Source: Candidatus Latescibacterota bacterium (lineage in GTDB: Bacteria; Latescibacterota; UBA2968; GCA-2709665). Taken from it: 64,000 nt of DNA. The stretch lies in contig OZ244937.1 of assembly GCA_965222075.1 (NCBI GenBank), positions 1,856,001 to 1,920,000 on the forward strand, given 5' to 3'. This document shows positions 1-24,849 of this stretch, one piece after another (position 1 is the first letter of the stretch; each line of letters begins with the position of its first letter). A model generated the notes under the pieces. It saw nothing but the letters and a program-made list of their open reading frames with translations, was not told the origin of the DNA and ran no database searches. A program made the position numbers and the translations under genes.

Positions 1-73
1 GCCAGCGTTGGCGCTTGCTGAACCCGCGCATTGCGGGCGTCATTCCGCAACAGGATATGTCGGACGAGGGAGA

Positions 74-1822: not shown

Positions 1823-2037
1823 TGGCGCGTGTATCTTTCACCGAATCCACCGTCCAACAGGTCGGAGCCGAGCCTGAGCAGGCGCGTATTTCGTGACGAT
1901 GGTCGTCCAGGGCCGGCCGTGCCTATTTGGCGCGCCGGGTGTGGGAGGCGTTGCCCCACCGGTTTTCAGGTGTTGAGATGGGTCCGTTTGTGGTCATGCC
2001 AAACCATATTCACACGATCATCATCCTGCACGGAACC

Positions 2038-3231
2038 GTAGGGGCGTCCCTTGTGGGCGCCCAATCCACGCACAACAGGGCAATCACAAGGGTTGCCCCT
2101 ACATTGGACGATGTGATCGGACCGGAATGGGACCGGGGTCGAGAATAGTACGATGCGGTGGAATACGGTTACGACAAACCAAATCCCGTCCGCATACACC
2201 ACCTGTAGCGCCCCTGGTGGGCGCCCGACCCACACCCAACAGGGCAACCACAAGGGTTGCCCCTACAAGAACCCTCATGTCCCCTGCCGGGGGTGACGTG
2301 TGCCATTCCAGGAGAACGCCCCATTGAAACACCGCTACAACCCGGACCACCATCACCGCAGGTCCATCCGACTGCGGGGATACGACTACACACAGGCGGG
2401 CGCGTATTTCGTGACGATGGTCGTCCAGGGCCGGTTGTGCCTGTTCGGCGATGTGATCGGCGCAGAGATGCGTTTGAATGAGGCTGGGGAAATGGCGCAC
2501 CGGGTGTGGGAGGCGTTGCCCCATCGGTTTCCAGGCGTTGAGATGGGGCCTTGTGTGGTCATGCCAAACCATATTCACGCGATCATCGTCCTGCACGGAA
2601 CCGTAGGGGCGTCCCTTGTGGGCGCCGACCCACGTACAACAGGGCAATCACAAGGGTTGCCCCTACATTGGACGATGTGATCGGACCGGAATGGGACCGG
2701 GGTCGAGAATAGTACGATGCGGTGGAATACGGTTACGACAAACCAAATCCCGTCCGCATACACCACCTGTAGCGCCCCTGGTGGGCGCCCGACCCACACC
2801 CAACAGGGCAACCACAAGGGTTGCCCCTACAAGAACCCTCATGTCCCCTGCCGGGGGTGACGTGTGCCATTCCAGGAGAACGCCCCATTGAAACACCGCT
2901 ACAACCCGGACCACCATCACCGCAGGTCCATCCGACTGCGGGGATACGACTACACACAGGCGGGCGCGTATTTCGTGACGATGGTCGTCCAGGGCCGGTT
3001 GTGCCTGTTCGGCGATGTGATCGGCGCAGAGATGCGTTTGAATGAGGCTGGGGAAATGGCGCGCCGGGTGTGGGAGACGTTGCCCCATCGGTTTCCAGGC
3101 GTTGAGATGGGGCCTTGTGTGGTCATGCCAAACCATATTCACGCGATCACCGTCCTGCACGGAACCGTAGGGGCGCCCCTTGTGGGCGCCCAATCCACGC
3201 CCAACAGGGCAACCACAAGGGTTGCCCCTAC
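2038..3231. repeat. Five GTAG-type REP doublets (REPIN-like): 2038-2102, 2205-2266, 2603-2666, 2769-2830, 3167-3231
   Basis: Each is an inverted pair of hairpins, GTAGGGGCG(T/C)CCCTTGTGGGCGCCC ... GGGCAA(C/T)CACAAGGGTTGCCCCTAC. The copies at 2205 and 2769 have a shortened left arm. Confidence 0.88.
2300..2680 (+). pseudogene. Truncated RAYT copy
   Basis: Near-identical to 2864.. through MPNHIH, then shifts frame within the REP doublet and stops. It lacks WQRNYYEH and YILDNP. Confidence 0.85.
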
Positions 3232-3472
3232 ATTGGGCGATGTGATCGGTGCGTACAAATCGTTGACCACGGTGGAATATGTGGGAGGCGCCCAGGCCAG
3301 GGGGTGGACACGGTTTCGGGACCGGCTGTGGCAGCGGAACTACTACGAACACATTGTGAGGGACGACGAGTCCCTTGGGAGAATCGAAGGATATATTCTC
3401 GACAACCCGGCAAATTGGTCACTCGACGAAGAGAATCCCCTGAACGTGTCGACGGTATCGGAACCCCTATGA
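2864..3472 (+). CDS. REP-associated tyrosine transposase (RAYT, Y1/HUH family)
   Basis: [18 protein letters not shown] motif [17 protein letters not shown] and catalytic YILDNP. Flanked by GTAG REPs. Confidence 0.9.
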
Positions 3473-6400
3473 CCACCATCACCGAAGCCGACGTTGAAGT
3501 CGCCGCCCTGGACTGGCTGGCGGGCCTCGGTTGGCAGGTCGCGCACGGGCCGGACATCGCGCCGGATACACCGAACGCCGAACGAGGCGACTACGGGCAG
3601 GTCGTGCTGGAACCGCGCCTGCGGGATTCCCTTGCCGAACTGAACCCCGCCCTGCCCCCCGACGCCCTTGACGACGCCTACCGCAGGCTGACCCGCCCCG
3701 AAGGCTCGACCCTGGAGGCACGCAACCGCGCCTTCCACCGGATGCTCGTCGACGGTGGGACAGTGGGATACCGGGGCGACGATGGCGCCGTCCGCTGGGA
3801 ACAGGCAAAGGTCATCGACTTCGACAACCCTGGCAACAACGACTGGCTGGCCGTCAACCAGTTCACCGTCACGGAGAATAAGAACACGCGCAGGCCCGAC
3901 GTGGTGCTGTTCGTCAACGGCCTGCCCCTGTGCGTGATCGAGTTGAAGAACCCGGCGGACGAGGACGCCACCATCTGGACGGCATGGCACCAGCTCCAGA
4001 CCTACAAGGCTGAACTGCCCACCCTCTTCTCCATGAACGAGGCGCTCATGGTCTCGGACGGGACCGAAGCCCGCATAGGCACGCTGACCTCCGGCAGGGA
4101 GTGGTTCAAGCCCTGGCGCACTATTGCGGGGGAGACGCTGGCCGACCGGCTCTTGACCGAGCTTCAGGTAATGCTGGAAGGTGTCTTTGAGCGAAGCCGT
4201 TTCCTCGGGCTCGTCCGCGACTTCATCGTTTTCGATGACGACGGCAGCGGCGCGCTGGAGAAAAAGATGGCGGGCTATCACCAGTTCCACGCGGTCAGGG
4301 TCGCGGTTGACGAAACGCTGCGCGCGGCGGAGTTACAACGATCAGCCGACAGGACCGTTGACACTGGCGGAAGGTACGAGACGGGCCGCAAGCCCGGGGG
4401 TGAGGCCGGCGACCGCCGTATCGGCGTGGTGTGGCACACTCAGGGGTCCGGCAAGAGCCTGACCATGGCCTTCTACGCCGGACGGATCGTTCTCGACCCG
4501 GCCATGGAGAACCCCACCATCGTCGTCCTCACCGACCGCAACGACCTGGACGACCAGCTTTTCGGCACCTTCTCCCGCTGCCAGGATCTGCTGCGCCAGC
4601 CGCCAGCCCAGGCGGAGAGCCGGACCGACCTGAGAAACAAACTCTCGGTGAATGCCGGTGGCGTGGTGTTCACAACGATCCAAAAGTTCTTCCCCGAGGA
4701 GAAGGGCGATACCCACCCAACGCTCTCCCTGCGCCGCAACATCGTGGTCATCGCCGACGAGGCCCACCGCAGCCAGTACGACTTCATCGACGGATTCGCA
4801 CGCCACATGCGAGACGCGTTGCCCAACGCCTCTTTCGTCGGCTTTACCGGTACGCCCATAGAACTTCAGGACGCCAACACGCGGGCCGTGTTCGGGGACT
4901 ACATCAGCATCTACGACATCCAGCGTTCCGTCGAGGACGGGGCCACGGTGCCGATCTACTACGAGAGTCGGCTGGCCAGGCTGACGCTCGATGAGGCCGA
5001 GAGGCCGCTCATTGACCCGGAGTTCGAAGAGGCGACCGAAGGCGAGGAAGTCGAGCGCAAGGAGAAGCTCAAGACCCGCTGGGCACAGCTCGAAGCCATC
5101 GTCGGCGCCGAGAAGCGGCTGAAGCTCGTCGCCGAGGACATCGTCGCCCATTTTGAGCAAAGGCTCGAATCCCTTGATGGCAAGGCGATGGTCGTCTGCA
5201 TGAGCCGACGCATCTGCATCGACCTCTACCACGAACTGGTGAGGCTACGCCCTGATTGGCATCACGAGGATGACGACAAGGGGTACCTCAAAGTCGTGAT
5301 GACCGGTTCGGCCTCCGACCCCGTGGATTGGCAGCCGCACATCCGCAACAAGCCGCGACGGGAGGCGCTGGCCAAGCGGTTCCGCGACCCCGACGATCCC
5401 CTGAGGGTCGTGCTGGTGCGCGACATGTGGCTCACCGGCTTCGACGCGCCCAGCCTGCACACCATGTACGTGGACAAACCGATGCGCGGCCATGGGCTGA
5501 TGCAGGCCATCGCCCGGGTCAACCGCGTGTTCAGGGATAAGCCGGGCGGCCTCGTCGTCGATTACCTGGGACTCGCCCACGAACTCAAGCGCGCATTGGC
5601 GACCTACACCGAAAGCGGCGGCACCGGGCAAACCGCACTCGACCAAAAAGAAGCGGTGGCGGTCATGCTGGAGAAATACGAAATCTGTTGCGGCCTGTTC
5701 CACGGCTTCGACCGGTCCAGGTGGATCACCGGCACACCGGCGGAACGCCTGAGCCTGCTACCGGCCGCGCAGGAACACATCCTGGCGCAAGAGAACGGCA
5801 AGGACCGCTGCGTGCAGGCGGTGCGCGAGCTTTCCCAGGCCTTCGCCCTGGCCGTCCCCCACGAGGACGCGCTGCGCATCCGGGACGACATCGGGTTCTT
5901 TCAAGCGGTTCGAGGGCAGCTGATGAAGCGGGCCGGCGGCGAGGTACGTCCGGAGGAAGAGTTGGACCACGCCGTGCGCCAGATCATCTCCCGCGCAGTG
6001 GCCTCCGAGGGCGTCATCGACATCTTCGCCGCCGCGGGTCTGGAAAAGCCGGACATCTCGGTGTTGTCGGACGAGTTCCTGGCCGAGGTGCGGGGGATGC
6101 CCCAGCGCAACCTCGCAGTCGAGCTGTTACAGAAGCTACTCAAGGGCGAACTCGCCACCCGCCGCCGGAAGAACGTCGTCCAGGCCCGTTCTTTCGCCCA
6201 GATGCTGGAACAGACCCTCCGCCGCTATCAGAACCGCGCCGTCGAAGCCGCGCAGGTGATCGAGGAGCTGATCCAGCTTGCAAAAGACATGCGGGAGGCC
6301 AACGCCCGCGGCGAGACGCTCGGACTCTCGGCGGACGAACTGGCCTTCTACGACGCGTTGGAGACCAACGACAGCGCCGTCCAGGTCCTGGGCGACGAGA

Positions 6401-6609
6401 CCCTGCGCACCATAGCCCGCAAGCTGGTCGAAACCGTCCGCAACAACGTCACCATCGACTGGACCCTGCGCGAGAACATCCGTGCGCAGCTGCGGGTGCT
6501 GGTCAAGCGCACGCTGCGCAAGTATGGCTACCCACCCGACAAGCAGGAAAAGGCAACACAAACCGTCCTGGAGCAAGCCGAGGTCCTATCCGCCGGATGG
6601 GCTGTGTGA
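3469..6609 (+). CDS. hsdR: Type I restriction endonuclease subunit R
   Basis: PDVVLFVNG...IELK nuclease motif, WHTQGSGKS Walker A, DEAH, FTGTP, MWLTGFD and [11 protein letters not shown] 3469 overlaps the RAYT stop. Confidence 0.96.
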
Positions 6610-9492: not shown

Positions 9493-10806
9493 ATGGAAGA
9501 CAGTGTTGTGCGTAAGGGCTTCACATACGTGCACATCCTGCTCTATATTCGTACCCTGTTAATTGCGGGAGCATTCGCCGTTTGTAGCGCCAGCGAGCCG
9601 GTTGAAGCAGGGGTATGGGACTACCTCAAGCAGTACTACCAGTCCATGCGGTTGGGTGAATTGGACGAGGTCGGCATTCGTGAAACGCCGGTGGAATACG
9701 CCGGCGAAGTCGGACTCGAGTTGATAGGCAGGGTCGAGCTACCTCTTGACGAGGATACACCGGGCATTGGGAATATAGCGTGGACGGGGATTACGGCGGA
9801 TAGTTCCCTGGCACTCATTGATTTAATCTCGTATGAGGTGTACGAGTTCAGCTTGCGTGACGGTCATTACGCACGCTCCATCGGGAGAAAAGGCCGAGGT
9901 CCCGGCGAGTATCAGATGGCTTGGAATATGGCCGTGGATCCGAAGGGCTATTTCTATGTTCAAGATATAGGGATCCAAGTCCTGCGCTATGACCAGCAGG
10001 GTAATTATCTCGATAGAACGCGATCGATTGGTAGTAAGAAGGTTGCGTGTGATCGCGATGGGGCCGTATTTTTTTTGGGAGTGAACGCTAATAATATAAT
10101 TCAGCTACAGAAGAGAGTCCCCAATATGAACTGGAAGGTGCAATATACGATCTCTCTTTCTACAAAAAAACAAGAGATTCTAGCCTATCGGATGAGTTCT
10201 TATGCTCAATTACGCTACAATCCCATGTCGCACCGTTTCTATTACCTGGGACCCAACGATGATAAGGTCAAAGAGATTGACGCGGAGCGCGGCGAGATCG
10301 TCCGACAATTTGGCCTTTTCGTGCCTCAACCTGTGGTTGAGGGATATCGTGTTGACCCTGAGTCCAGAGCGTTGGAAGTGATCCATTCCGGTCGTTGGCA
10401 GACCCCCGAATACGTCCCGCTGCCAGAAAGCTACCATGACAAAGGTGTGGGTTCCCGTGAGGATATGCGAGCGTTGCGCATAAGCAAGGTGACTGCTATG
10501 ATATTACTCGATAATCGGTACCTTATAGTCTTTTACATACACCCATCTCTACAAATGTCCCGGATCATTTACGACCTGAAGGCAGGTGAGAGTGTAAAGG
10601 CCTATTCGTTTAATGAAGAAGCTTCGAAGGCGTTCGTTTGTCTTGTAGAATATTCAGCTCCTGATAACTTTGCCCCAGCCACGATGAGTGGTACGCAGAT
10701 GGCTGCGTGGCAAGATCGGCTGTATATCTATCAGCCGCCCCTATTTGAGAAAGCAGAGCAATCGAACGGCGTGATAAAGATCTATACGCTTTCATTTCCT
10801 CAGTGA
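9493..10806 (+). CDS. Exported 6-bladed beta-propeller (NHL-like) protein
   Basis: N-terminal hydrophobic segment and the motif IGRKGRGPGEY...MAVDPKGYFYVQD. The ORF track starts at 9451. Confidence 0.7.
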   Translation: MEDSVVRKGFTYVHILLYIRTLLIAGAFAVCSASEPVEAGVWDYLKQYYQSMRLGELDEVGIRETPVEYAGEVGLELIGRVELPLDEDTPGIGNIAWTGITADSSLALIDLISYEVYEFSLRDGHYARSIGRKGRGPGEYQMAWNMAVDPKGYFYVQDIGIQVLRYDQQGNYLDRTRSIGSKKVACDRDGAVFFLGVNANNIIQLQKRVPNMNWKVQYTISLSTKKQEILAYRMSSYAQLRYNPMSHRFYYLGPNDDKVKEIDAERGEIVRQFGLFVPQPVVEGYRVDPESRALEVIHSGRWQTPEYVPLPESYHDKGVGSREDMRALRISKVTAMILLDNRYLIVFYIHPSLQMSRIIYDLKAGESVKAYSFNEEASKAFVCLVEYSAPDNFAPATMSGTQMAAWQDRLYIYQPPLFEKAEQSNGVIKIYTLSFPQ

Positions 10807-10817
10807 ACGATATTATA

Positions 10818-11768
10818 TTAGACCTGCACGGCCAGTTGGTCTAGTAACTGACGGATATTCCGCTCATTCCCCGCAATAAATACGGGAGCCAATGCTCCGC
10901 GGCCATGCAGGGCCTGGATCAGGAAATCAATTTGGAGCATCTTTTCTTCAGGTTTCTTGCAGTTGGGCCATTTTTTAAGGAACAGATGTGCAGGGAATGG
11001 GTGGCCTGTTCTCAGTTTGAGACTCGAAACTTCCTTCTTCCACATCTGCCACTTAAAGATGTGGCCGCATCCATGGCAGAGCAGTTTCTCATCGCGCCGT
11101 TTCAGTGACTTACGAAAGTTTCTCCATCGGCGCCGGTAATCACAATGCGGACAGTGAAGGTAGCCTCCCGAATGCACGGCCGTCTTCCCGCATTTGGGGC
11201 AGAGGAACTCACGGTTTGCAGAGGAGGCTTTGCGTTCACCGTCATTATTCGCATCCCAGCGATTGCTTTGGAAATTCGGTCTTCGGATAAGAGATCCGCA
11301 CTCTGGGCAGGGAAGACGAAGCCGACGAGTAACTGATTGCCGATATTGGCGGGTCGCCCAAGATTTTCCGCACTGGCATTCCAGCCGATTTGTTTCAGCG
11401 TTCAATTTCAACATGGAATAGCAGTCGAAGCAGTGAGGGGTTTCCCGAAGGGCATCCCGGCAGTCGCTCCACAAGAGACGTTTCAGGCAACAAGAGCAGT
11501 GGAACCAGCCCGACCGATAAGTCTTTTCGGAAGAAAGACTGACGCTTTCCGCTGGTGACAATATGTTTCTGCGTTTCACGTTCGTCCCGCATTGAGGACA
11601 AGGGACTTCGCCATATTCAATGGCACGAGCTACAGCTACGACATCCCTGCACCGAGCATACAAGCCCCAGCCTACTTCGAGTAGAAGTTCATCATCATAT
11701 ACGCCGATGCGAGAAAGCCTGTAAAGACGGCCAATTTCCACTGGCTTTATGCGAGGTGCCCATTTCAT
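10818..11768 (-). CDS. Multi-zinc-ribbon hypothetical protein
   Basis: CPQC, CSCC, CFDC, CQC, CPEC, CPKC, CPHC and CHGC. The native ATG (11768) lies within the IS1595 TSD. Confidence 0.7.
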   Translation of the reverse strand: MKWAPRIKPVEIGRLYRLSRIGVYDDELLLEVGWGLYARCRDVVAVARAIEYGEVPCPQCGTNVKRRNILSPAESVSLSSEKTYRSGWFHCSCCLKRLLWSDCRDALRETPHCFDCYSMLKLNAETNRLECQCGKSWATRQYRQSVTRRLRLPCPECGSLIRRPNFQSNRWDANNDGERKASSANREFLCPKCGKTAVHSGGYLHCPHCDYRRRWRNFRKSLKRRDEKLLCHGCGHIFKWQMWKKEVSSLKLRTGHPFPAHLFLKKWPNCKKPEEKMLQIDFLIQALHGRGALAPVFIAGNERNIRQLLDQLAVQV

Positions 11769-11802
11769 TAGGGACTTATATACTTGGCTAAGCACTCCTT
11801 TA

Positions 11803-11970
11803 TTATCCCCTTCTCCGCTCTCTCAGCATCTCGTTCGTCTCCGGCTTACCGTCCATCAATGCCCTCGCTAAAGCAGACGCCCGCTCATCCAACTCCTCCA
11901 AACTCAAACCACTATCCAACTCCACATCCTCAACAACCCCCTCCTTCTTTACGTCCTTCGTAGCACCCAT
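11803..11970 (-). CDS. 55-aa hypothetical protein (MGATK...), third gene of the TA operon
   Basis: RBS AAGGAGG before ATG 11970. A truncated MGATK ORF also follows the second TA module. Confidence 0.6.
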   Translation of the reverse strand: MGATKDVKKEGVVEDVELDSGLSLEELDERASALARALMDGKPETNEMLRERRRG

Positions 11971-11980
11971 GACAACCTCC

Positions 11981-12328
11981 TTATCTCCTCCTATAAACCC
12001 TTTGACGCTTCTCCATATGAACCACATGAACCTCCCCACCAACCCTCTTATAGAAAATCCTGTAATTACCCCTCCTGACCCTAAATACAGGATCATTAGC
12101 AGGACGACCCTTTACCTTAACCGACCCCTTCCTGTTATTAGGATCTCTGAGAGATTCGATCTTTTCAATAGCCAAACGCCTGACATTAGGTTGCAAGCCT
12201 TCCTCAATAAACTTAGCAACAGCATCCCGAATAACTATCTCTTGCCCTCCCAACACCTCCGGCTTCGGTTGCTCCGAAACCTTCTCTTCCCTATCCTTCC
12301 TCCCACCCCTCCGCCGAGCCTCATTCAC
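11981..12328 (-). CDS. RelE/ParE-superfamily toxin
   Basis: IEKIESLRDP...VKVKG...FRVRRGNYRIFY...R.RVY; basic 115-aa protein overlapping the upstream gene. Confidence 0.82.
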   Translation of the reverse strand: MNEARRRGGRKDREEKVSEQPKPEVLGGQEIVIRDAVAKFIEEGLQPNVRRLAIEKIESLRDPNNRKGSVKVKGRPANDPVFRVRRGNYRIFYKRVGGEVHVVHMEKRQRVYRRR

Positions 12329-12543
12329 CGCTCACCTCCACCCCTCTTCATCCTATCAAAAAACCGACGGGTCTCCCCAACGGATAACATCCTACTCTTT
12401 CCAGTACGAAGGTCTTCATCAATCTGCAATGACAAAGACAGATCCCGCGCCTCCTCACCCCTATCCTCCTGAATCACGTCTTCAGGACGCCCACCCCGTA
12501 AAACAAAATTAATCAACCGCATTGCACCACTCTTAGCACCCAT
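12325..12543 (-). CDS. Putative antitoxin (unrecognised family)
   Basis: 72 aa, upstream of and overlapping the toxin, with RBS AAGGAGG. Paralog of 24059-24274 (shared SLQIDED.RTGK.RMLS). Confidence 0.65.
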   Translation of the reverse strand: MGAKSGAMRLINFVLRGGRPEDVIQEDRGEEARDLSLSLQIDEDLRTGKSRMLSVGETRRFFDRMKRGGGER

Positions 12544-12599
12544 AACACCCTCCTTTTCTCTTTTGCATCTTTCACCACATAAACAAACCGACAAAGAAA

Positions 12600-12644
12600 T
12601 TTATACAAAACTTATTGACTTTTGTCAATCTCTATCACTATATT
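12600..12644. promoter_or_regulatory. Back-to-back sigma70 promoters sharing the palindrome TTGAC-N4-GTCAA (12615-12628)
   Basis: Minus strand: TTGACA-17-TATAAA toward the TA module. Plus strand: TTGACT-18-TATATT toward 12651. Confidence 0.6.
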
Positions 12645-12650
12645 ACCCAC

Positions 12651-12781
12651 GTCTTCATACTGGCAGACCCGCAATGTCGGGTAGCCTACCAAATACAATA
12701 GCCGACTTATCAAGGTAAGGGTAGCTCCCGAACCTGGCAAATACGTAGGGCCTTCCCGCATACCTCTGCGAGTATGGAGAC
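12651..12781 (+). ncRNA. Candidate structured RNA or 5' leader
   Basis: Ends GTCTTCATACTGGCAGA and TCTGCGAGTATGGAGAC pair at 16/17 positions (one G-U). Internal hairpins present. Begins at the predicted transcription start. Confidence 0.4.
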
Positions 12782-12846
12782 AACTACCCGGCACCCTATG
12801 CAGGGGTGCCGAAAGTTGTTCACTCTCCACGACGGAGGTAACAGGG

Positions 12847-13315
12847 ATGAGACTAATAGCATTGGTTTGCCGCATGCTCGGTAGCCCTCACAGGCTGTGG
12901 AGCGCTCTTTGTCGGTACGACGCAGACCATTAGCATCAACTCATCACCGACTAACAGCGAGGTGAAAATTGATGAAGGAATCTTCACAACTCCAACATCG
13001 GTAGAACTCGCTCGAAATAAGAGCTATACAGTAACCATATCCAAAGAAGGATACGAAACAAAGTCGGTCAAACTCAACAGACAAGTTAGCGGGAAGATAG
13101 TCATACTGGACATCTTAGCAGGTATTGTTCCCATAGTGATAGATATGGCAATGGGAACATGGTACGAACTGAAACCAAGCACCATAAATGTCAACCTGTC
13201 CAGCAAGCAATCAGGCAAGCAGGACATACCCGTGAACCTCAGTGCAATAGACCGAGGGCAACTGAAGATTAACTCATCGGAACCCGTAACGGTCAAGGTA
13301 GAAGCCCTCGAATAA
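12847..13315 (+). pseudogene. PEGA-domain lipoprotein, frameshifted in the signal peptide
   Basis: RBS GGAGGT plus ATG 12847 (MRLIALV) is out of frame with the lipobox LTGC and the PEGA-like ISINSSP..EVKID...TP...YTVTISKEGYE. Confidence 0.65.
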
Positions 13316-13410
13316 ATAACCCTGGTGGGTAAAGTGGTATGGGCGATCCCGATAATCGCCCATACCAAATCACATGCCAGAATGCTGAAACATCCGAAAG
13401 GAGAACGAAA

Positions 13411-13608
13411 ATGAGCAAGGCAAAACGTGAAAATTCAAAGGTAGCTGAAATCCTGTCAAAGCAACCCGGAAAAGAAGCAGAAATTAACATCCTCGCTGAT
13501 AAAATGGATCTAACCGAATACGAAGCACGGGGATGTATTGACCAGTCCCGATATAAAGGATATAAGATTGAAAACTCTGACAGACGTATGTTCAAATTAG
13601 AAGATTAA
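13411..13608 (+). CDS. Small winged-HTH-like protein
   Basis: RBS AAGGAG; ILADKMDLTEYEARGCIDQSRYKGYKI resembles an HTH. The stop codon overlaps the IS630 target site. Confidence 0.5.
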   Translation: MSKAKRENSKVAEILSKQPGKEAEINILADKMDLTEYEARGCIDQSRYKGYKIENSDRRMFKLED

Positions 13609-13669
13609 GTAGTCGCGCATGAATTTTTTGGTATAATGGGGCTTCGGAAGTCGTATATTAGAGAACCGA

Positions 13670-13694
13670 CCTGCCTGTGCCGAAGGCAGACAGG
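13670..13694. repeat. CCTGCCTG...CAGACAGG mini-palindrome (25 bp)
   Basis: CCTGCCTGTGCCGAAGGCAGACAGG inside the IS630 left end. Confidence 0.85.
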
Positions 13695-13732
13695 TATGAA
13701 AGGGTTCAACACGACGTCAATGGAGGTTCTCT

Positions 13733-14775
13733 ATGAAAGTTGCGACGAAGTTTGTATCCGCCTTAAGTCCAGATCAGATCCAACACCTTGAAGATTTAGC
13801 GGAACGTGATTCGGTCAGGCGAGTTCGAATGCGAGCCCATAGCATTTTACTCAGTTCAAGGGGTTCGAGCATGGATGAGATTGCCAGGATATACCAAGTG
13901 CATCGCGATACGGTTTCTTCCTGGATTGACAATTTTGAGCACCTTGGAGTGGATGGATTGAGAGATAAGCCTCGAAGTGGGGGTCCTCCCAAGTTAAATG
14001 AGCAAGAAAAAGAAGTGGCAAAAGAGCTCCTCAAGACCCATTCCAACGCGCCTTCAATGGTCTTAGCCCTCTTAAGCGAGAAAACGGGAAAAACCATCAG
14101 CCGTTCCAGCTTAAGACGGATTGCGAAAGGGGCAGGCCTGCGTTGGAAACGCGTGAGAAAATCGCTTAAAACCAAACGAGATGATGAGGCGTTTGATCAG
14201 GCGAAAAAAGAGATTGAAGGGTTAAAAAAAACATCAATCCAGAACGCTTGACCTGTATTACTTTGACGAAGCTGGATTTTCTTTGGATCCGAGTATTCCC
14301 TACGCCTGGCAGCCTGTAGGTGAAACCATAGAGGTGCCTGTCGCCAAGAGCAAACGCCTCAATGTTCTGGGATTTCTCAACACAGACAATGACCTCACTC
14401 CTTTCTGCGTGGAGGGCAGCGTTACGAGTGACATTGTGATCGGATGTTTTGATCTTTTTACCTGCCTGTGCGTGCGGGCACGCACGCAGACAGGGCGAGA
14501 CGATCACCAAAAAAACCGTGGTTATTATTGACAATGCGCCCATCCACACAAGTCAGGCGTTTCAGAAAAGGGTGCCCATCTGGAAAAAGAAGGGCTTGGT
14601 CCTCTATTTTTTACCCGGATACGCACCCGAACTCAACCTCATCGAAATCTTGTGGCGTTTTATCAAGTATTGGTGGTTGCCCTTTTCAGCCTACCTAAAT
14701 TTCCGTGCTTTGGTTGAGGCTGTTGAAGATATTCTGGTGAATGTGGGATCGAAATATAAAATCGCTTTCCAGTAA
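13733..14775 (+). pseudogene. IS630 transposase (OrfA/OrfB, -1 frameshift at A8 14224-14231), disrupted by a 34-bp palindrome insertion
   Basis: HTH (RMRAHSILLS, DKPRSGGP), YFDEAGF, IIDNAPIH and PELNLIEILW. The insert at 14461-14494 shifts the frame. Confidence 0.88.
14461..14494. repeat. CCTGCCTG...CAGACAGG mini-palindrome (34 bp)
   Basis: Removing it restores the reading frame DLFSETITKKTVVIIDNA. Confidence 0.9.
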
Positions 14776-14848
14776 ACCATTCAATATGCCACAAAACTCA
14801 TAGACAACTACTTAACTTCCATTTAACCCACAACAACGGAGGCCCAAA

Positions 14849-15076
14849 ATGCCCCGTTTCTTACTCGAAGCCTTCAACGTGGAATTAGACCTTGATCTTG
14901 GAGCTGTCGTTTTATCTCTTCGGGGGTCCGACGAAGTGGACGCATCAGGTACCATCCAGATAGATTTAGATCCACCTCCGCCGAACTCTTACATTTTTCA
15001 GGACTTGGAGGGTGGTAAGAACCTCGCTCGACAACTTCAAGAGGCGATTCAGACTTTAGAGTCTTTAAGTTCGTAG
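14849..15076 (+). CDS. Hypothetical protein (75 aa), IS1595 cargo
   Basis: RBS GGAGG; converges on the transposase stop codon. Confidence 0.55.
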   Translation: MPRFLLEAFNVELDLDLGAVVLSLRGSDEVDASGTIQIDLDPPPPNSYIFQDLEGGKNLARQLQEAIQTLESLSS

Positions 15077-16030
15077 TCATGCAGTCAACTCCTTATATTT
15101 AAGGCGCTTGCCTACCATGTGCTCCGCAACATAAGCCATCTGGTCTATCGTATCCATATTGCGAACGTTGTGCCTGCCCGAAAACTCATTAACATACCGA
15201 CCCAAATGATCAACGCTCATCTTGTGAAACGTCCCATGATAACCACGCTTGAGCATACTCCAAAATGATTCCAAGCCATTCGTATGGGCTTGGCCATCCA
15301 CATACTCGCCTACGGAGTGCTTAACAACCTCGTGTTGAACACCCTCCAAACCCTTGTAAGCCATAGCCTCATCTGTATAAACAGGCGTCCCATCCTTAGC
15401 ATGCGCATAGACAAAAGCCTTTAAGGTCGGGCCGTCTGTGGACTCTACCACCACAGCATCAATACGGTTTGTTATCCGATCTTTAGCGCCCACAACTGCT
15501 GTCTTACCTACCGTACCACGACCCGCGTTCAACTTCTTTTTCGCATGCTTGTTTTTCTCCAGGCCACCAATATAGGTCTCATCCACCTCGATGGGTCCAT
15601 AAAACAAGGACTTTCCTTCCTCCCACGCCTCGCGTATACGATGGGCCATAAACCAAGCGGTCTTTTGTGTGACCTTCAAATCTCTATGGAGCTTCATACT
15701 GGAAACACCCTTCAAACTGGATACATGCAGGTAAATCCCTATTACCCACTTCCTCAACGGTATCTTAGAACGCTCCATTACCGTCCCCGTCCGTACACTA
15801 AAATGACGTCGGCAGTCACCACACCAAAAGGGCATGGGCTTGCCCGAAGAGACAGCATTAACCTTGTCGCAACCTCCGCAACGGGGGCAGCACAAGCCTT
15901 CGCGGTCAGCACCCCACCTGCAATCTTCAAACCACGATACTGCCGACGCCTCATCAGGAAAACGATCATCAAGCAACTCAATAAGGGAGATTCCCTTGCG
16001 ATAATGCTTACCAGGTGCCTTCTGCGGCAT
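15077..16030 (-). CDS. IS1595-family DDE transposase
   Basis: Zn ribbon CPRC..CGDC, SSMKLHRDL..QKTAWFM.HRIR, EVDETYIGG, YTDE, HTNGLESFW and YVNEF. Confidence 0.95.
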   Translation of the reverse strand: MPQKAPGKHYRKGISLIELLDDRFPDEASAVSWFEDCRWGADREGLCCPRCGGCDKVNAVSSGKPMPFWCGDCRRHFSVRTGTVMERSKIPLRKWVIGIYLHVSSLKGVSSMKLHRDLKVTQKTAWFMAHRIREAWEEGKSLFYGPIEVDETYIGGLEKNKHAKKKLNAGRGTVGKTAVVGAKDRITNRIDAVVVESTDGPTLKAFVYAHAKDGTPVYTDEAMAYKGLEGVQHEVVKHSVGEYVDGQAHTNGLESFWSMLKRGYHGTFHKMSVDHLGRYVNEFSGRHNVRNMDTIDQMAYVAEHMVGKRLKYKELTA

Positions 16031-16249
16031 GATAACACCCCTCGACTTTACAGGTTATGTGTTAATAATATCAACAACTTACACCTATAATATAACACAC
16101 TTACCCTGCTTAGTCAAGTATATAATTCCCTTTCATTATTATCTCCGGATACCAGCATCCATACTCTTTGGGCAACATCCGCCACTGGAGTTGCCCCGGT
16201 TCACCGCAGAGACGCGGAGGAACGCATCGTCAAGCTCGTCGGTCTCGAT

Positions 16250-16607
16250 CTTTTACCTCAGAAGCTACTTTGTCAACCACCAGCATATGATGCACTACGA
16301 CATCTACCTCAAAAAAGGCTATCCGACCTGCCTGTGTGTTGCACGCAGACAGGTCTCTACAGGCGTGGTCGAAGGCACCTGCGGCTCGCTGGTCAAAGAC
16401 CGGATGGAGAACAGCGGCATGCGCTGGTCCATCACCGGTGCTCAGGCTGTCTTGGCACAACGTGCGGTCGTGAAAAATGGCGACTGGGGTGACTTCTGGA
16501 ACTACTACATCGACTCCCAAAGAGAGCGGCTCTATCCAACTGTGTACCAGAGAGTCCATCTATACGAAAAAACCGCTTAAACTCGCCCGTAAAATCTTAC
16601 ACACTCA
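16250..16607 (+). pseudogene. ISKra4-family transposase 3' remnant
   Basis: YF.NHQHMMHY..YLKKGYP(I)STGVVEGTCGSLVKDRMENSGMRWS..GAQA.L..R. Confidence 0.8.
16327..16353. repeat. CCTGCCTG...CAGACAGG mini-palindrome (27 bp, in frame)
   Basis: Removing it restores GYPISTGVVEG. Confidence 0.9.
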
Positions 16608-16634
16608 AATCACTTTCTCGTTTTTTATTTTTAC

Positions 16635-17117
16635 TCACACCCTTACTTCAGTGCGTTTAGCAGCGATACGCCCAAGTGACCAGTCAGCTCGACGACGTAC
16701 CTCGGCATCATCATCAGTGCGAAGCCTTTCAAGAGTATCTTTCAAACGTGAATCTAAAACTGGAAGTAATCCAAGTGTCGTCGTCGCTTTTCGTCTCACA
16801 CGGACACTTGTATCTTCAAGCGCACGTTTGGCAACCAATCCCACAGTATCTACATCTAAAGGGACGGTCTTGCATTGATCACATACAATTGAGTGCAACG
16901 CATGACGGCGGACATCAGCAATTGGATCTTCTAAGGCCCGGGCAAGGGGCTCAGCACATCGTTCATCTGAAATATGATCCATCAAAGCAGCACAACTCTT
17001 CCGAATTCTCCAATTCTCGTGCCCCAATCCAGCGATCAATGCTTCCACGGTTTGTAAATCCGCCTTCTGCAATGTGGAATAGGCGGCATAACGCTTAGAC
17101 CAATCCTCGGAGCCCAA
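16635..17117 (-). CDS. HEAT-repeat (PBS lyase-like) protein
   Basis: Repeats LIAGLGHENWRIR..CA, LARALEDPIADVRRHA, ALEDTSVRVRRKA and DDDAEVRRRA. Start uncertain (TTG). Confidence 0.75.
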   Translation of the reverse strand: MGSEDWSKRYAAYSTLQKADLQTVEALIAGLGHENWRIRKSCAALMDHISDERCAEPLARALEDPIADVRRHALHSIVCDQCKTVPLDVDTVGLVAKRALEDTSVRVRRKATTTLGLLPVLDSRLKDTLERLRTDDDAEVRRRADWSLGRIAAKRTEVRV

Positions 17118-17234
17118 TTGCTCAATCAGGCGTGAAATTCTTGGGATTATATCCGTCTCCTTTCAGACAATAGTTCGGACACTTTTTGCAATTTCGGCCT
17201 AATTTGGGAAACATTACTTCTCTAAGTCTTTAAA

Positions 17235-17247
17235 AATCAACAGGTTA
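17235..17247 (+). promoter_or_regulatory. IHF consensus site near the right end of the island
   Basis: AATCAACAGGTTA matches WATCAANNNNTTR within an AT-rich non-coding stretch. Confidence 0.5.
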
Positions 17248-17698
17248 TCCATTTTGATTATAAATTTCATAAATTTATAGAAAACAATAAGTTACAAAAA
17301 CTGTTCACAGTATTGTTCAGACAGGTAAATGACTTGAACCGTCTTTCAAGTTCGAACGATCCGAGAATTCGCATAGAATATGGCCTTAAAATTCTGTAAA
17401 ATCAAGTCCCCCCCCTCCCCCTTTTCCATCCTTCAACCGGCCAAAAATGGATGTAATTAATTGTTATTAAACACTCTACGAGAATCATATAAAAATGTAA
17501 GTTTCTGGAGATTTCTTCGATGCAATGGCTTGCAAGCCCTGTGATGGGATAAGTTGGGGGAACCTATCTGAAGTGCCAATTATACATCTGGAGGTCCCTC
17601 CTGTTGGGGGTTGGCTGCCTCGTTTGGTGATACTTACAAGGTAGCCTTAGGACCTCCTTTCTCCTATTTAAAGTCACACATCGCGTTAGTTTTGCATG

Positions 17699-17839
17699 AA
17701 CCGGATCGAGGTCGACCGGCTGCCCGGAATGACCGTCCAGGACGGCTACGTCAAGCTCCAGTACTTCCCCAACTGGGGAATCCCCGGCGGGCTGGACTTC
17801 CGGATTGTCAATTCGGTGCACACATCGGCACCCTGAAAA
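17699..17839 (+). repeat. Direct repeat copy 2 (displaced lyase 3' end; attR-like)
   Basis: Matches 9208-9348 and is followed ~20 bp later by the next gene's start. Confidence 0.95.
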
Positions 17840-17856
17840 ATCGAAAAGGAGTTCCC

Positions 17857-18771
17857 ATGTCAAGCTCTCCCCTCAACATCCTCCTCGTCGGCGGCAGCGG
17901 GTTCCTCAGCGGCACCCTGGCGCGCAGGGCTGTCGCGCAGGGCCATCATGTCTGGGCCGTCACGCGGGGCCAGAGGGACCTTCTCGACGGGGTCACCGGC
18001 ATCACGGCCGACCGCCACGACCGGGACGCCTTCCAGCAGGCCATCGCCGGCGCAGGGATGGAATGGGACCTGACCGTGGACTGCATCGGGTACGACCCGG
18101 TCGATGCAAAACAGGATATCGCCGTCTTCCGGGACCTGACGCCCCATTTCGTCTTCGTCTCCACCGACTTCGTCTTCGACCCGGCCCACCGCACCTTTCC
18201 CCAGCCCGAAGAGAGCGACCACTACCTCACCAATAATACCTACGGGGCAAAAAAACGCCGCTGCGAATTGGAAATTCTCAACGGCGACACCGGCGGCATG
18301 GCCTGGACGATCCTGCGCCCCTGCCACATCTACGGACCCGGCTCTCTGCTCGGCTGCCTCCCCCTTCACAGCCGGGACCAAGACTTGATTGCTAAGCTGA
18401 AGGCCGGAGAACCGCTTCGGCTCGTCGGAGGCGGCCACTTTCTTCAGCAGCCCATCCTCGCCCGGGACCTGTCCGACCTCGTCCTCAGCTTCCACGGCAA
18501 CGAACAGACCTGCGGCGAAATCTTCTGCGCCGCCGGCCCGGACATCATCGAATCGGTGGAATACTACCGGATCATCGCCCGCATCCTGGATGCCCCGGAG
18601 CCGACCATCGAGGAAATCCCGGTAAGCCGGCACCTGACCGAACAGCCCCAATCCGTCTCCTTCGTCTGTCACCGCATCTACAGCCTGGACAAATTAGAAT
18701 CCACCGGCGCCAGCGTCCCATCAACCCCCGTTGAACAGGGCCTCCGCGAACACGTCGAAAGCCTGCTTTAA
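17857..18771 (+). CDS. NAD-dependent epimerase/dehydratase (atypical SDR)
   Basis: ILLVGGSGFLSG, FVST, YGAKK and LRPCHIYGP; RBS AAGGAG. Confidence 0.88.
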   Translation: MSSSPLNILLVGGSGFLSGTLARRAVAQGHHVWAVTRGQRDLLDGVTGITADRHDRDAFQQAIAGAGMEWDLTVDCIGYDPVDAKQDIAVFRDLTPHFVFVSTDFVFDPAHRTFPQPEESDHYLTNNTYGAKKRRCELEILNGDTGGMAWTILRPCHIYGPGSLLGCLPLHSRDQDLIAKLKAGEPLRLVGGGHFLQQPILARDLSDLVLSFHGNEQTCGEIFCAAGPDIIESVEYYRIIARILDAPEPTIEEIPVSRHLTEQPQSVSFVCHRIYSLDKLESTGASVPSTPVEQGLREHVESLL

Positions 18772-19621: not shown

Positions 19622-19775
19622 AACAAAACCAGGACGTTAAAGCAACAAATACTGCCAAAAATACGATCTCTTTTTTCTTGTCCCTTCCACCTGTTAGCCA
19701 AGTATGTAATTCCCAATTTTTACAGCCGCCTTTTTTGTAAGGTCTCCCTATTCTGAAAGGAGCACCCACCTGACC

Positions 19776-23850: not shown

Positions 23851-23882
23851 TTGACAAAAGTCAAGCAGAAGTTTTATATAAT
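23851..23882 (+). promoter_or_regulatory. TA promoter/operator TTGACAAAAGTCAA
   Basis: The same 14-bp palindrome as upstream of the first TA module. TATAAT at 23877 gives a long (20-bp) spacer. Confidence 0.55.
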
Positions 23883-23896
23883 ATGGAGGTTATATT

Positions 23897-24274
23897 ATGG
23901 GCAGGGCGATGGATTTGATAGATCGGGTGGTATCGGGAGAGGATGCTAAGGTGGTTGTGGGGGGTTTACGTGAGAGTCGGGGAAAGGATACGGAAGAGGG
24001 TAAGGGGGATCTACGGGAGCGTGCGGAGCATTTTGTTAGTGAAGAAAAGGAGGATGTTATGGGTGTTGTTAGTGGTGCGCTGAGGTTGATTGGGCGCGTT
24101 ATGGGGGGTGCGCGTCCTAAAGAAGTGATTCAGGAAAATACGGATGAGGACCCGTTTCTGGCTCAATCGTTGCAGATTGATGAGGATATTCGCACTGGCA
24201 AGAACCGGATGCTGTCGGCCGAGGAATCCCAGAGGGCGATTGATAGATTGAAAAAGAAGTGGGGTATGTCTTGA
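23897..24274 (+). CDS. Putative antitoxin, paralog of 12325-12543 (second start at 24059)
   Basis: MGVVSGALRLI...SLQIDEDIRTGKNRMLS. RBS present before both 23897 and 24059. Confidence 0.65.
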   Translation: MGRAMDLIDRVVSGEDAKVVVGGLRESRGKDTEEGKGDLRERAEHFVSEEKEDVMGVVSGALRLIGRVMGGARPKEVIQENTDEDPFLAQSLQIDEDIRTGKNRMLSAEESQRAIDRLKKKWGMS

Positions 24275-24588
24275 GTAAGCGTCGGAGGGGCAAGGGGGGA
24301 AAGGATGAGCCGAGGGTTCAGGAAGAGCCCAGGATTATTCTTTTTGGTCTGGCCCTTAAGATGCTGGAGACTCTGCAACCCAATATAGGTCGTTTGGTTA
24401 TGCAGAGGATCGAGGTTCTTAAAGATCCTCTGCATAGGCGGGGTTCGATCAAGATACAGGGGCGTCCTGCCAACGATCCGATGTTTAGAATTGAGTCTGG
24501 AAATTATAGGATTTTCTACAAGAGAGTTGGCTCCGACATTCACGTAGTTGATATACGTCATCGTCAAGGGGCTTATAAGAAGGGATAA
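24271..24588 (+). CDS. RelE/ParE-superfamily toxin, paralog of 11981-12328
   Basis: LQPNI.RL...IE.LKDP...GSIKIQGRPANDPMFRIESGNYRIFYKRVG...IRHRQGAY. Confidence 0.82.
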   Translation: MSKRRRGKGGKDEPRVQEEPRIILFGLALKMLETLQPNIGRLVMQRIEVLKDPLHRRGSIKIQGRPANDPMFRIESGNYRIFYKRVGSDIHVVDIRHRQGAYKKG

Positions 24589-24849
24589 GGAGGGTGTGAT
24601 GGGCGCTACGAAGGGCGGTAATCAGGAGCGGAGGGCTTGCGAAAGTTGCCAGCGTTGCGGCGATGGGAATTGATACCTATGCCTGGTCACCTGTTGGGAT
24701 TACTTTCTCCCGGTCCAATACCGCTACGACTGAGAAGACCGTGATTCTGAGCAGTTCTAAAGGGAAAGATAAATTTTCTCGACAAATAACCATCTGCCGC
24801 GCCACCTCGCAGCCCCGGCCCCAAACCGGGTGAGCACGTGCAACAGCCC

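Follow-up and report, generated by a model that had tools for sequence, protein, structure and literature searches.

Transporter insertion sequences (tIS) are insertion sequences (IS) that hold passenger genes within their ends; in excerpts of a preprint (bioRxiv 10.1101/2021.05.26.445724), they are described as confined to the IS1595 and IS66 families, and an excerpt of PMC3129680 cites Siguier et al. 2009 for them. Here, we describe such an element in a 64,000-nucleotide (nt) stretch of the genome of Candidatus Latescibacterota bacterium (assembly GCA_965222075.1, contig OZ244937.1, positions 1,856,001 to 1,920,000; in our numbering G000:C1:1856001-1920000, G000 being the element's own genome). 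We refer to this whole stretch as the window; an original prediction, made from the sequence alone, had placed in it an intact 4.4-kb IS1595 element with cargo. Positions 11771 to 16130 of the window form a mobile unit of 4,360 bp, an IS1595-family tIS, and we put the probability that this interval is one mobile tIS, with the cargo mechanism proposed below, at roughly 85%.

Like ISNwi1-like tIS, the element encodes one DDE transposase, with a zinc-ribbon region at the N terminus, and has short inverted repeats (IRs) beginning GGnnaTTAT, an 8-bp target site duplication (TSD), and passengers placed between the transposase and the far end. It differs from other IS1595 tIS in its transposase, which is at most 64% identical to copies in 40 related genomes and less than 46% identical to plasmid-borne copies, and in its cargo, the ParE/RelE module, structured RNA, lipoprotein, winged helix, and nested IS630 being specific to the present copy. 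Its toxin-antitoxin (TA) operon resembles type II systems of the ParDE/RelBE kind: a small upstream gene overlaps a ParE/RelE toxin gene of about 100 amino acids (aa), a palindrome lies at the promoter, and the C-terminal half of the upstream protein is predicted to wrap the toxin. Unlike those systems, however, the toxin falls below the Pfam cut-off, represents a rare branch, and has an additional basic stretch of about 30 aa at its N terminus, the antitoxin belongs to no known DNA-binding family, and a third gene, of 55 aa, follows the toxin.

The RNA of the element is best compared with sRNA-Xcc1 (RF02221). Excerpts of one preprint place sRNA-Xcc1 upstream of symE in Xanthomonas integron cassettes, in the same orientation and with its own promoter (bioRxiv 10.1101/2025.06.18.660453), and excerpts of another article report it in multiple copies in an island of Xylella (PMC12189769). 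Both RNAs have a closing stem, the blocks AAUACAAUA.CC and GG.GAAUAA, and a CCGGCACCC tail, and each travels on a mobile element, where it has its own promoter and precedes a small gene. The RNA of the element, in contrast, is about 55 nt longer (some 30 extra nt in the first hairpin, 16 to 26 in the second, and a 3' hairpin), occurs in another phylum, and precedes genes for exported proteins rather than SymE. The element thus belongs to a known class, the tIS, and the structured RNA family is its newest part.

RESULTS

Boundaries and empty site

The terminal IRs and the 8-bp TSD of the original prediction were borne out: the IRs agree at 22 of 24 positions, and TTTCATTA is repeated exactly on both sides. 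The features that bound and would mobilize the unit, together with the gene into which it inserted, are as follows (window positions).

10818-11768, minus strand: flanking zinc-ribbon gene, 316 aa, with its ATG inside the left TSD copy
11763-11770, no strand: left TSD copy, TTTCATTA, holding the minus-strand ATG of the zinc-ribbon gene
11771-11794, plus strand: left IR (IRL), GGGACTTATATACTTGGCTAAGCA, of the GGGnnTTAT end type found in nine sister elements
15077-16030, minus strand: intact IS1595-family transposase gene, 317 aa (PF12762, NF033547)
16089-16117, minus strand: promoter-like site of the transposase gene, TTGACT-17-TATATT with TG, its -35 hexamer within the right IR
16107-16130, minus strand: right IR (IRR), reverse complement GGGAATTATATACTTGACTAAGCA, differing from IRL at 2 of 24 positions
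16131-16138, no strand: right TSD copy, TTTCATTA, a repeat of 11763-11770

A repeat finder called the IR pair as 25 nt long and 92% complementary because it included one base of the TSD. Searching the 5.36-Mb single-contig genome with a degenerate 24-mer end (up to 3 mismatches) returned 4 places, namely, the element's two ends and two solo IRL-like ends elsewhere (G000 1148356 and 1217688), against 0 for a reversed-pattern control; a 13-nt end motif (up to 2 mismatches) matches the window 9 times versus 1.78 expected, a count reached by none of 100 shuffles.

Evidence of movement comes from public data. Logan contigs of four public runs were compared with window positions 9500 to 18500 (run X10, which covered just 5 short pieces, was left aside), and the empty-site allele with a single TTTCATTA, which the original prediction had proposed to look for, was found in contigs of two public studies. 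In runs X1 (depth 6.13) and X6 (depth 10.7), which belong to two different studies, position 11762 is joined to 16131, such that 4,368 bases are skipped and 8 letters fit either side. The occupied junction is also present in X1, in contigs spanning 10495-11770 (depth 31.9) and 11741-13136 (depth 16.7) that overlap by 30. A single insertion into TTTCATTA duplicated its target, and the uninterrupted site persists in natural populations; judged from this empty-site allele, the element appears to have been mobile recently.

The zinc-ribbon gene is the victim of this insertion: its start codon was hit and severed from its own ribosome-binding site, a GGAG that now lies at 16147-16150, displaced beyond the right TSD. 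In one further X6 contig (depth 2.1), position 12556 is linked by 38 unrelated letters to the first base of IRL (11771), which may reflect another insertion in that community, either of the element itself or of a relative.

Transposase and family placement

The transposase, which had been described as intact looking, is full length, exceeds the cut-offs of both family profiles (PF12762, E value of 1.8e-35 and 122.6 bits versus a cut-off of 27; NF033547, 179.4 bits versus a cut-off of 75), and keeps its catalytic residues. In an alignment with 8 sister transposases over the full length, the conserved positions are D (VEVDET), D (YTDE), E (NGxESFW), K seven residues on, and ExxxR (EFSGR). Expressed from the promoter whose -35 hexamer lies in IRR, this DDE transposase would bind both GGGnnTTAT... 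repeats and mobilize all of the DNA between them. An ISXO2/IS1595-type DDE transposase, terminal IRs, and an 8-bp TSD place the element in the IS1595 family, and the presence of passengers inside the IS ends, with the whole unit absent at the empty-site joint, makes it a tIS.

Within the family, we presume an ISNwi1-like placement, the subgroup being defined in the ISfinder table by ggnnatTAT ends and the residues DDEK plus ER4; the element's ends (GGGACTTAT and GGGAATTAT), the K seven residues after E, and EFSGR match that definition. Its length also lies within the range of passenger-bearing ISNwi1 elements, 1.75 to 4.75 kb. Within the element ends, 3.3 kb is not transposase DNA, and without the nested IS630, the element would measure about 3.15 kb, similar to its sisters.

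Sister elements in related genomes

The transposase finds matches at an E value of 1e-20 or better in 22 of 41 genomes (its own included), the best match among the 40 relatives being 64% identical. For 14 of the best copies, we retrieved the surrounding 15 kb or so; their transposases are 54 to 64% identical to that of the element. The IRs pair around other IS1595 copies as well: nine of the 14 could be delimited, each by IRs beginning GGG(A/G)(A/C)TTA (the GGGnnTTAT type) and exact, AT-rich 8-bp duplications, with lengths of 2263, 2451, 2748, 2770, 2867, 2915, 3109, 3941, and 4096 bp. All nine bear cargo, amounting to 1.3 to 3 kb of varied extra DNA; with the same ends, duplications, and lengths of 2.3 to 4.1 kb in nine sisters, cargo bearing is therefore the rule in this clade. 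The scan for IRs plus duplications did not delimit the remaining five copies (L043, L045, L047, L048, and L049). In genome G026, two 99.8%-identical copies continue for 1.5 kb or more on the upstream side of the transposase, so some members are organized differently.

The cargo of the sisters hints at conflict functions. The 3109-bp element L041 (genome G038) contains a gene for an N6/N4 DNA methyltransferase (PF01555, E value of 3.1e-42) overlapping a 259-aa open reading frame (ORF) of no family, the two possibly being a restriction-modification pair that the IS carries. Other sisters encode one sub-threshold ParE-like toxin and several small membrane proteins, one of which has a sub-threshold match to a Pycsar-effector transmembrane (TM) domain.

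Recurrent small genes also occur in these elements. By BLAST, five of the nine (L038, L041, L044, L046, and L050) encode a small basic protein with an AT-hook-like RGRP and a PDTPENIAKA motif, often near the far end, for which no family was found; a relationship between these proteins and the 55-aa ORF of the element was considered and dropped, the similarity being too weak. In the element's own genome, a second IRL-like end (1 mismatch) at G000:C1:1147480-1148380 (L006) precedes a homologue of the 55-aa ORF, and an approximately 65-bp direct duplication of IRL-proximal sequence there brackets an insert of about 730 bp encoding a small membrane protein, an arrangement suggestive of cargo exchange at the left end of the element.

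Cargo and its shared promoter region

The cargo features are as follows.

11803-11970, minus strand: 55-aa ORF, third gene of the TA operon, beside IRL, with a 49-aa homologue at L006:588-737
11981-12328, minus strand: ParE/RelE-family toxin gene, 115 aa, with a basic N-terminal extension of about 30 aa
12325-12543, minus strand: putative antitoxin gene, 72 aa, its stop overlapping the toxin's GTG start (GTGA)
12600-12644, no strand: back-to-back promoter-like sites with two opposed -35 hexamers, sharing the palindrome ATTGACTTTTGTCAAT (12614-12629)
12673-12814, plus strand: structured RNA, 142 nt, a multi-stem junction with a 3' hairpin, 32 nt upstream of the lipoprotein ATG
12847-13315, plus strand: PEGA-domain lipoprotein gene, ATG at 12847, body frame 12860-13315, split at the T-run 12866-12868
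13411-13608, plus strand: winged-helix protein gene, 65 aa, its TAA stop overlapping the TA target of the nested IS630
13608-14812, plus strand: IS630-family element, with ORF1 at 13733-14251, the DDE part at 14283-14775, and TA at 13606-13607 and 14813-14814
14461-14494, no strand: GC-rich hairpin repeat, 34 nt, within the IS630 transposase gene, skipped by contigs of three runs
14849-15076, plus strand: 75-aa ORF, tail to tail with the transposase gene

We propose that the cargo comprises two divergent units driven from one palindromic promoter region. A promoter scan places TTGACT-18-TATATT on the plus strand, with the RNA predicted to start near 12651, and TTGACA-17-TATAAA can be read directly from the sequence on the minus strand. 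The leftward unit would be an operon of the antitoxin-like ORF, the ParE/RelE-family toxin, and the 55-aa ORF, and the rightward unit would be the 142-nt RNA running into the genes for the PEGA lipoprotein and the winged-helix protein and the 75-aa ORF.

Toxin-antitoxin operon

All three genes of the predicted antitoxin-RelE-small ORF series are present, with the amendment that "RelE" is a divergent, putative toxin of the ParE/RelE family. A word-indexed search returned 7 relatives of the toxin, and PF05016 is matched at an E value of 0.01 or better by 4 of 8 close relatives. A profile of 8 sequences retrieves 42 library proteins, with 5 library representatives at an E value of 1e-10 or better. 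When 39 of the 42 were scanned (leaving out one 76-aa protein and two of more than 1,000 aa), PF05016 appeared in 34, of which 33 are at or above the cut-off, and the five closest relatives match nothing. RelE/ParE clusters also account for 19 of 30 toxin matches in the ESM Atlas. Membership of the toxin in the ParE/RelE superfamily is thus supported transitively, via profile search.

The 72-aa ORF is predicted to bind the toxin. A modeled complex of the two (toxin residues 28-115) scores 0.81, compared with 0.00 for the best of 3 controls, a mark that 58 of 80 solved complexes attain, as do 2 of 110 mismatched pairs; the three runs have at least 89% of contacts in common, the partner has a predicted local distance difference test (pLDDT) score of at least 70, and the antitoxin interface involves residues 31-68. 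For the 55-aa ORF, Pfam, NCBIfam, and PADLOC gave no match. Acting as a type II TA system, the module would penalize loss of the element. The original prediction of a tIS is upheld, and the self-stabilizing (addiction) or anti-phage role that it suggested stays a proposal.

The window contains a paralogue of this operon at 23853-24660 (66% nucleotide identity), with an antitoxin gene at 24059-24274, a toxin gene at 24259-24588, the same TTGACAAAAGTCAA promoter palindrome (23853-23866), and a truncated third ORF but neither transposase nor IRs; the locus is probably a decayed sister element. According to the original prediction, relatives that carry the same cargo within the same flanks while lacking the transposase would speak against a cargo element; the paralogue at 24059-24588 lacks the transposase, but as its flanks differ, this objection does not apply.

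Structured RNA

The divergent structured RNA foreseen in the original prediction is real by covariation, but rather than being specific to the IS, it is part of a large, lineage-wide family. The fold z-score of 12651-12846 is -4.15, and BLAST finds the same 150 nt or so in other sister elements at 70 to 79% identity, despite their different protein cargo. An alignment of 7 sequences has 37 predicted pairs, 14 of which show compensatory change. A covariance model built on the core (R1) scores the window RNA at 130 bits and yields 76 matches in 41 related genomes, 32 of which have the RNA; in a sample of 151 genomes from across the phylum, 63 contain it. With 33 sequences aligned, 94.9% of cells are paired versus 36 to 45% in slid controls, and 20 of 36 pairs show compensatory change, values reached by none of 500 shuffles, with the proviso that this alignment was fitted to the R1 model, which biases it toward structure. 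The invariant junction nucleotides are AAUACAA, GAAUAAG, and CUUCCCGCA. Within the element's own genome, the tIS holds the only full copy.

We suggest that the RNA acts in cis, as the leader of a portable promoter-plus-leader unit for exported-protein genes. In 13 of 25 non-syntenic loci, the RNA is followed, no more than about 130 nt away, by the start of an ORF with a signal peptide, lipobox, or TM segment (11 assigned by script and 2 by eye, three of them mutually orthologous), versus a background of 12% of 356 ORFs.

No Rfam family reaches its gathering score anywhere in the window (0 matches). The sole Rfam match to the RNA is sRNA-Xcc1, full length (1-87) but sub-threshold, at 24.4 bits versus a gathering score of 53; the window RNA is nonetheless the best RF02221 match in the genome (E value of 0.16), and RF02221 also matches 4 of 6 other RNA loci at 26.1 to 29.7 bits, with E values overall from 0.13 to 0.92. 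The two RNAs are alike in arrangement, and their homology is a lead, one that we consider somewhat better than an even bet. A bolder proposal, which we consider speculative and on balance doubtful, is that they are two branches of an ancient, mobile-element-borne class of cis leaders, a portable promoter-plus-sensor unit controlling risky products in a riboswitch-like manner through a ligand- or protein-binding junction core. If so, integron cassettes of Proteobacteria (with the SymE toxin) and the IS1595 tIS described here (with exported or membrane proteins) would share such control, and the RNA would be an undescribed riboswitch-like regulator carried as IS cargo.

Separately from the tIS, the RNA occurs in genomes of a sister genus as a syntenic, highly conserved copy of 148 nt with its own promoter-like site, situated between genes for PpiC-like and CPBP-protease-like proteins (L064-L067, L069-L071, and L073-L077).

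Lipoprotein, winged-helix, and 75-aa genes

The predicted PEGA lipoprotein gene is present (PF08308, E value of 1.4e-8 and 35 bits versus a cut-off of 20.8) but frameshifted in the present assembly by one extra T. Contigs of X1, X5, and X6 all have one base fewer at 12867/12868, at full depth, and the extra T is therefore either private to the strain or an assembly error. Without it, the protein begins MRLIALVAACSVALTGC, and the LTGC lipobox falls in frame with the ATG.

The small gene predicted to encode a helix-turn-helix (HTH) protein is likewise present, and its product is modeled as a winged helix (AlphaFold2 pLDDT of 88.8). The best Foldseek rows are the winged helices of ArsR/SmtB, MarR, and BirA, at E values of 0.024 to 0.1, none reaching 0.001, and with TMq values of 0.63 to 0.75. 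This 65-aa protein has homologues in 2 of the 8 sister elements compared (L046 and L050), has no Pfam match, and retrieved itself alone in a homologue search; a weak PADLOC row for Csx23 (E value of 0.0063) was disregarded. The orphan ORF of the original prediction corresponds to the 75-aa ORF, which has no family in Pfam, NCBIfam, or PADLOC and no homologue among the sister elements.

DISCUSSION

Alternative explanations

Several results weigh against the element being a mobile tIS with the cargo mechanism that we propose. The empty-site contigs extend just 22 letters into the left flank, and joints with a side of less than 30 are weak; the short side probably marks a branch point of the assembly graph, since 22 + 8 gives the 30-letter overlap of neighboring contigs, but the caveat remains. 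The genome has one intact transposase copy and two short fragments, and no copy more than 64% identical occurs in 40 related genomes, such that activity is inferred from the polymorphism alone. Neither an empty site nor synteny was found in 5 related genomes, searched with 953 nt of the left flank and 1,070 nt of the right, which returned short or repeat matches only. The ISNwi1 placement, which follows the subgroup features tabulated in ISfinder, is provisional. Against PF05016, the toxin reaches 21.8 bits, under the cut-off of 23, its AlphaFold2 model is poor (pLDDT of 49.8 with 8 sequences), and PDB sequence searches with the toxin and its profile gave chance-level rows only. Likeness to solved ParE/RelE-antitoxin complexes may drive the score of the modeled complex, and the 72-aa ORF has no family match in Pfam, NCBIfam, or PADLOC, its best Atlas score of 0.83 being below the useful range. 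The RNA is present in just 4 of 10 delimited elements, and in 12 sister-genus genomes the syntenic copy lies in the chromosome with neither a transposase nor an adjacent ORF, a copy that resembles a resident small-RNA gene and would fit a free-standing small RNA (sRNA) as well as a leader.

That the 4.4 kb is not a single element at all, but an IS1595 copy of about 1.1 kb near 15050-16130 plus the solo end of another copy at 11771, with ordinary chromosome between, strikes us as very improbable. Solo IRL-like ends do exist in the genome (G000 1148356 and 1217688; window 19691-19714), and there is no second full copy in the genome to show the whole unit moving. Nevertheless, the 8-bp duplication brackets the 4.4-kb unit exactly, all 4,368 bases are gone together in the empty-site joint, no inner repeat was found near the 3' end of the transposase gene, and the same long architecture recurs in nine sister elements, each bounded by an exact duplication of its own, so that the two-piece reading is already largely refuted. 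The unit being one tIS, a separate matter is whether its TA module is an addiction device, as we propose, or is instead phage-defense (abortive-infection) cargo or a neutral hitchhiker. This alternative to addiction, which we judge rather unlikely, draws on the sister in which the N6/N4 methyltransferase (E value of 3.1e-42) is followed by the 259-aa ORF of no family in a restriction-modification-like layout, on the small membrane proteins of other sisters (one with the sub-threshold Pycsar-effector TM match), on the SIR2-like gene and type I restriction R subunit about 5 kb from the element, and on the persistence of the transposase-less TA paralogue at 24059-24588. PADLOC, however, assigned none of 7 proteins from the cargo or flanks to a system; post-segregational killing offers little to an IS present as a single copy in the chromosome, yet defense is equally without support, and the roles are not mutually exclusive.

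The RNA could also be a free-standing, trans-acting sRNA that by chance lies upstream of the lipoprotein gene, a reading that we hold to be the less probable one, at about one chance in three. It would account for the syntenic copy of the 12 sister-genus genomes, which has a promoter-like site of its own and no ORF beside it, and for a copy (L049) that is followed by a terminator-like hairpin with a T-run; furthermore, sRNA-Xcc1 is called trans-acting in the title of the paper describing it. A cis-acting leader is instead favored by the lack of a terminator-like site in the window between 12814 and the ATG at 12847, by the exported-protein ORFs that begin within about 130 nt in 13 of 25 non-syntenic loci, and by the position of sRNA-Xcc1 upstream of symE, in the same orientation, in the Xanthomonas cassettes covered by excerpts of the preprint cited above (bioRxiv 10.1101/2025.06.18.660453).

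Implications

Annotation at the level of genes would present this interval as a set of unrelated hypothetical genes, and reading it as a tIS unites them: the genes of the element travel together because all form one tIS. The IS1595 clade to which it belongs shuttles 1.3 to 3.3 kb of changeable cargo, spanning toxin-like genes, a methyltransferase with its partner ORF, and small exported proteins, and offers a set in which to study how passengers are taken up and swapped. Given its empty-site allele, the element itself could be used in a transposition assay. Of interest beyond the biology of IS is the RNA, which is backed by covariation, occurs in 63 of 151 genomes, is absent from Rfam at threshold, and may link to sRNA-Xcc1, whose mode of action remains unclear.

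Neighboring sequences and nested repeats

To the left, window positions 8-6609 encode a protein with a SIR2-like domain (PF13289) and a type I restriction R subunit with HsdR domains (E value of 2.6e-136), about 5 kb from the element, a setting that resembles a defense island. On the other side, the 3' fragment of an ISKra4-family transposase gene (16140-16580, plus strand; NF033572 profile positions 340-422 of 422) adjoins the right TSD, and the tIS therefore landed beside older IS debris. A solo IS1595-type end lies 3.5 kb to the right of the element (19691-19714, minus strand; reverse complement GGGAATTACATACTTGGCTAACAG, matching IRL at 19 of 24 positions); neither a partner nor a matching duplication was found for it, and it may be a relic of another tIS or an alternative end. 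A second IR pair, 17142 with 19714, was rejected on account of differing flanking 8-mers.

The nested IS630 of the original prediction is present, with TA on both sides, but its transposase gene is broken. Its terminal repeats are 34 nt long and 76% complementary, and DDE_3 (PF13358, E value of 5.5e-17) and HTH domains recognized by Pfam place it in the IS630 family. The transposase frame shifts at an A8 run (about 14225-14232). A 34-nt insert at 14461-14494 also breaks the frame, and its removal restores it. Slippage sites occur in IS elements, and the A8 run, at which public contigs covering it have no indel, may be the normal slippage site of this IS630. The 34-nt insert, in contrast, is skipped in contigs of three runs (sides of 206, 206, and 82), and as the public IS630 contigs lack it, the hairpin repeat behaves as an insertion. 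In the order of events that we propose, the IS630 would have inserted later into the TA at the stop codon of the winged-helix gene and would subsequently have been broken by the 34-nt repeat. This repeat belongs to a family of GC-rich hairpins of 25 to 42 nt (CCTGCCTGTG...CAGACAGG), with 68 copies in the genome by a loose pattern; those in or beside the element are at 13670-13694 (25 nt), 14461-14494, and 16327-16353, two of them in the IS630 and one in the ISKra4 fragment.

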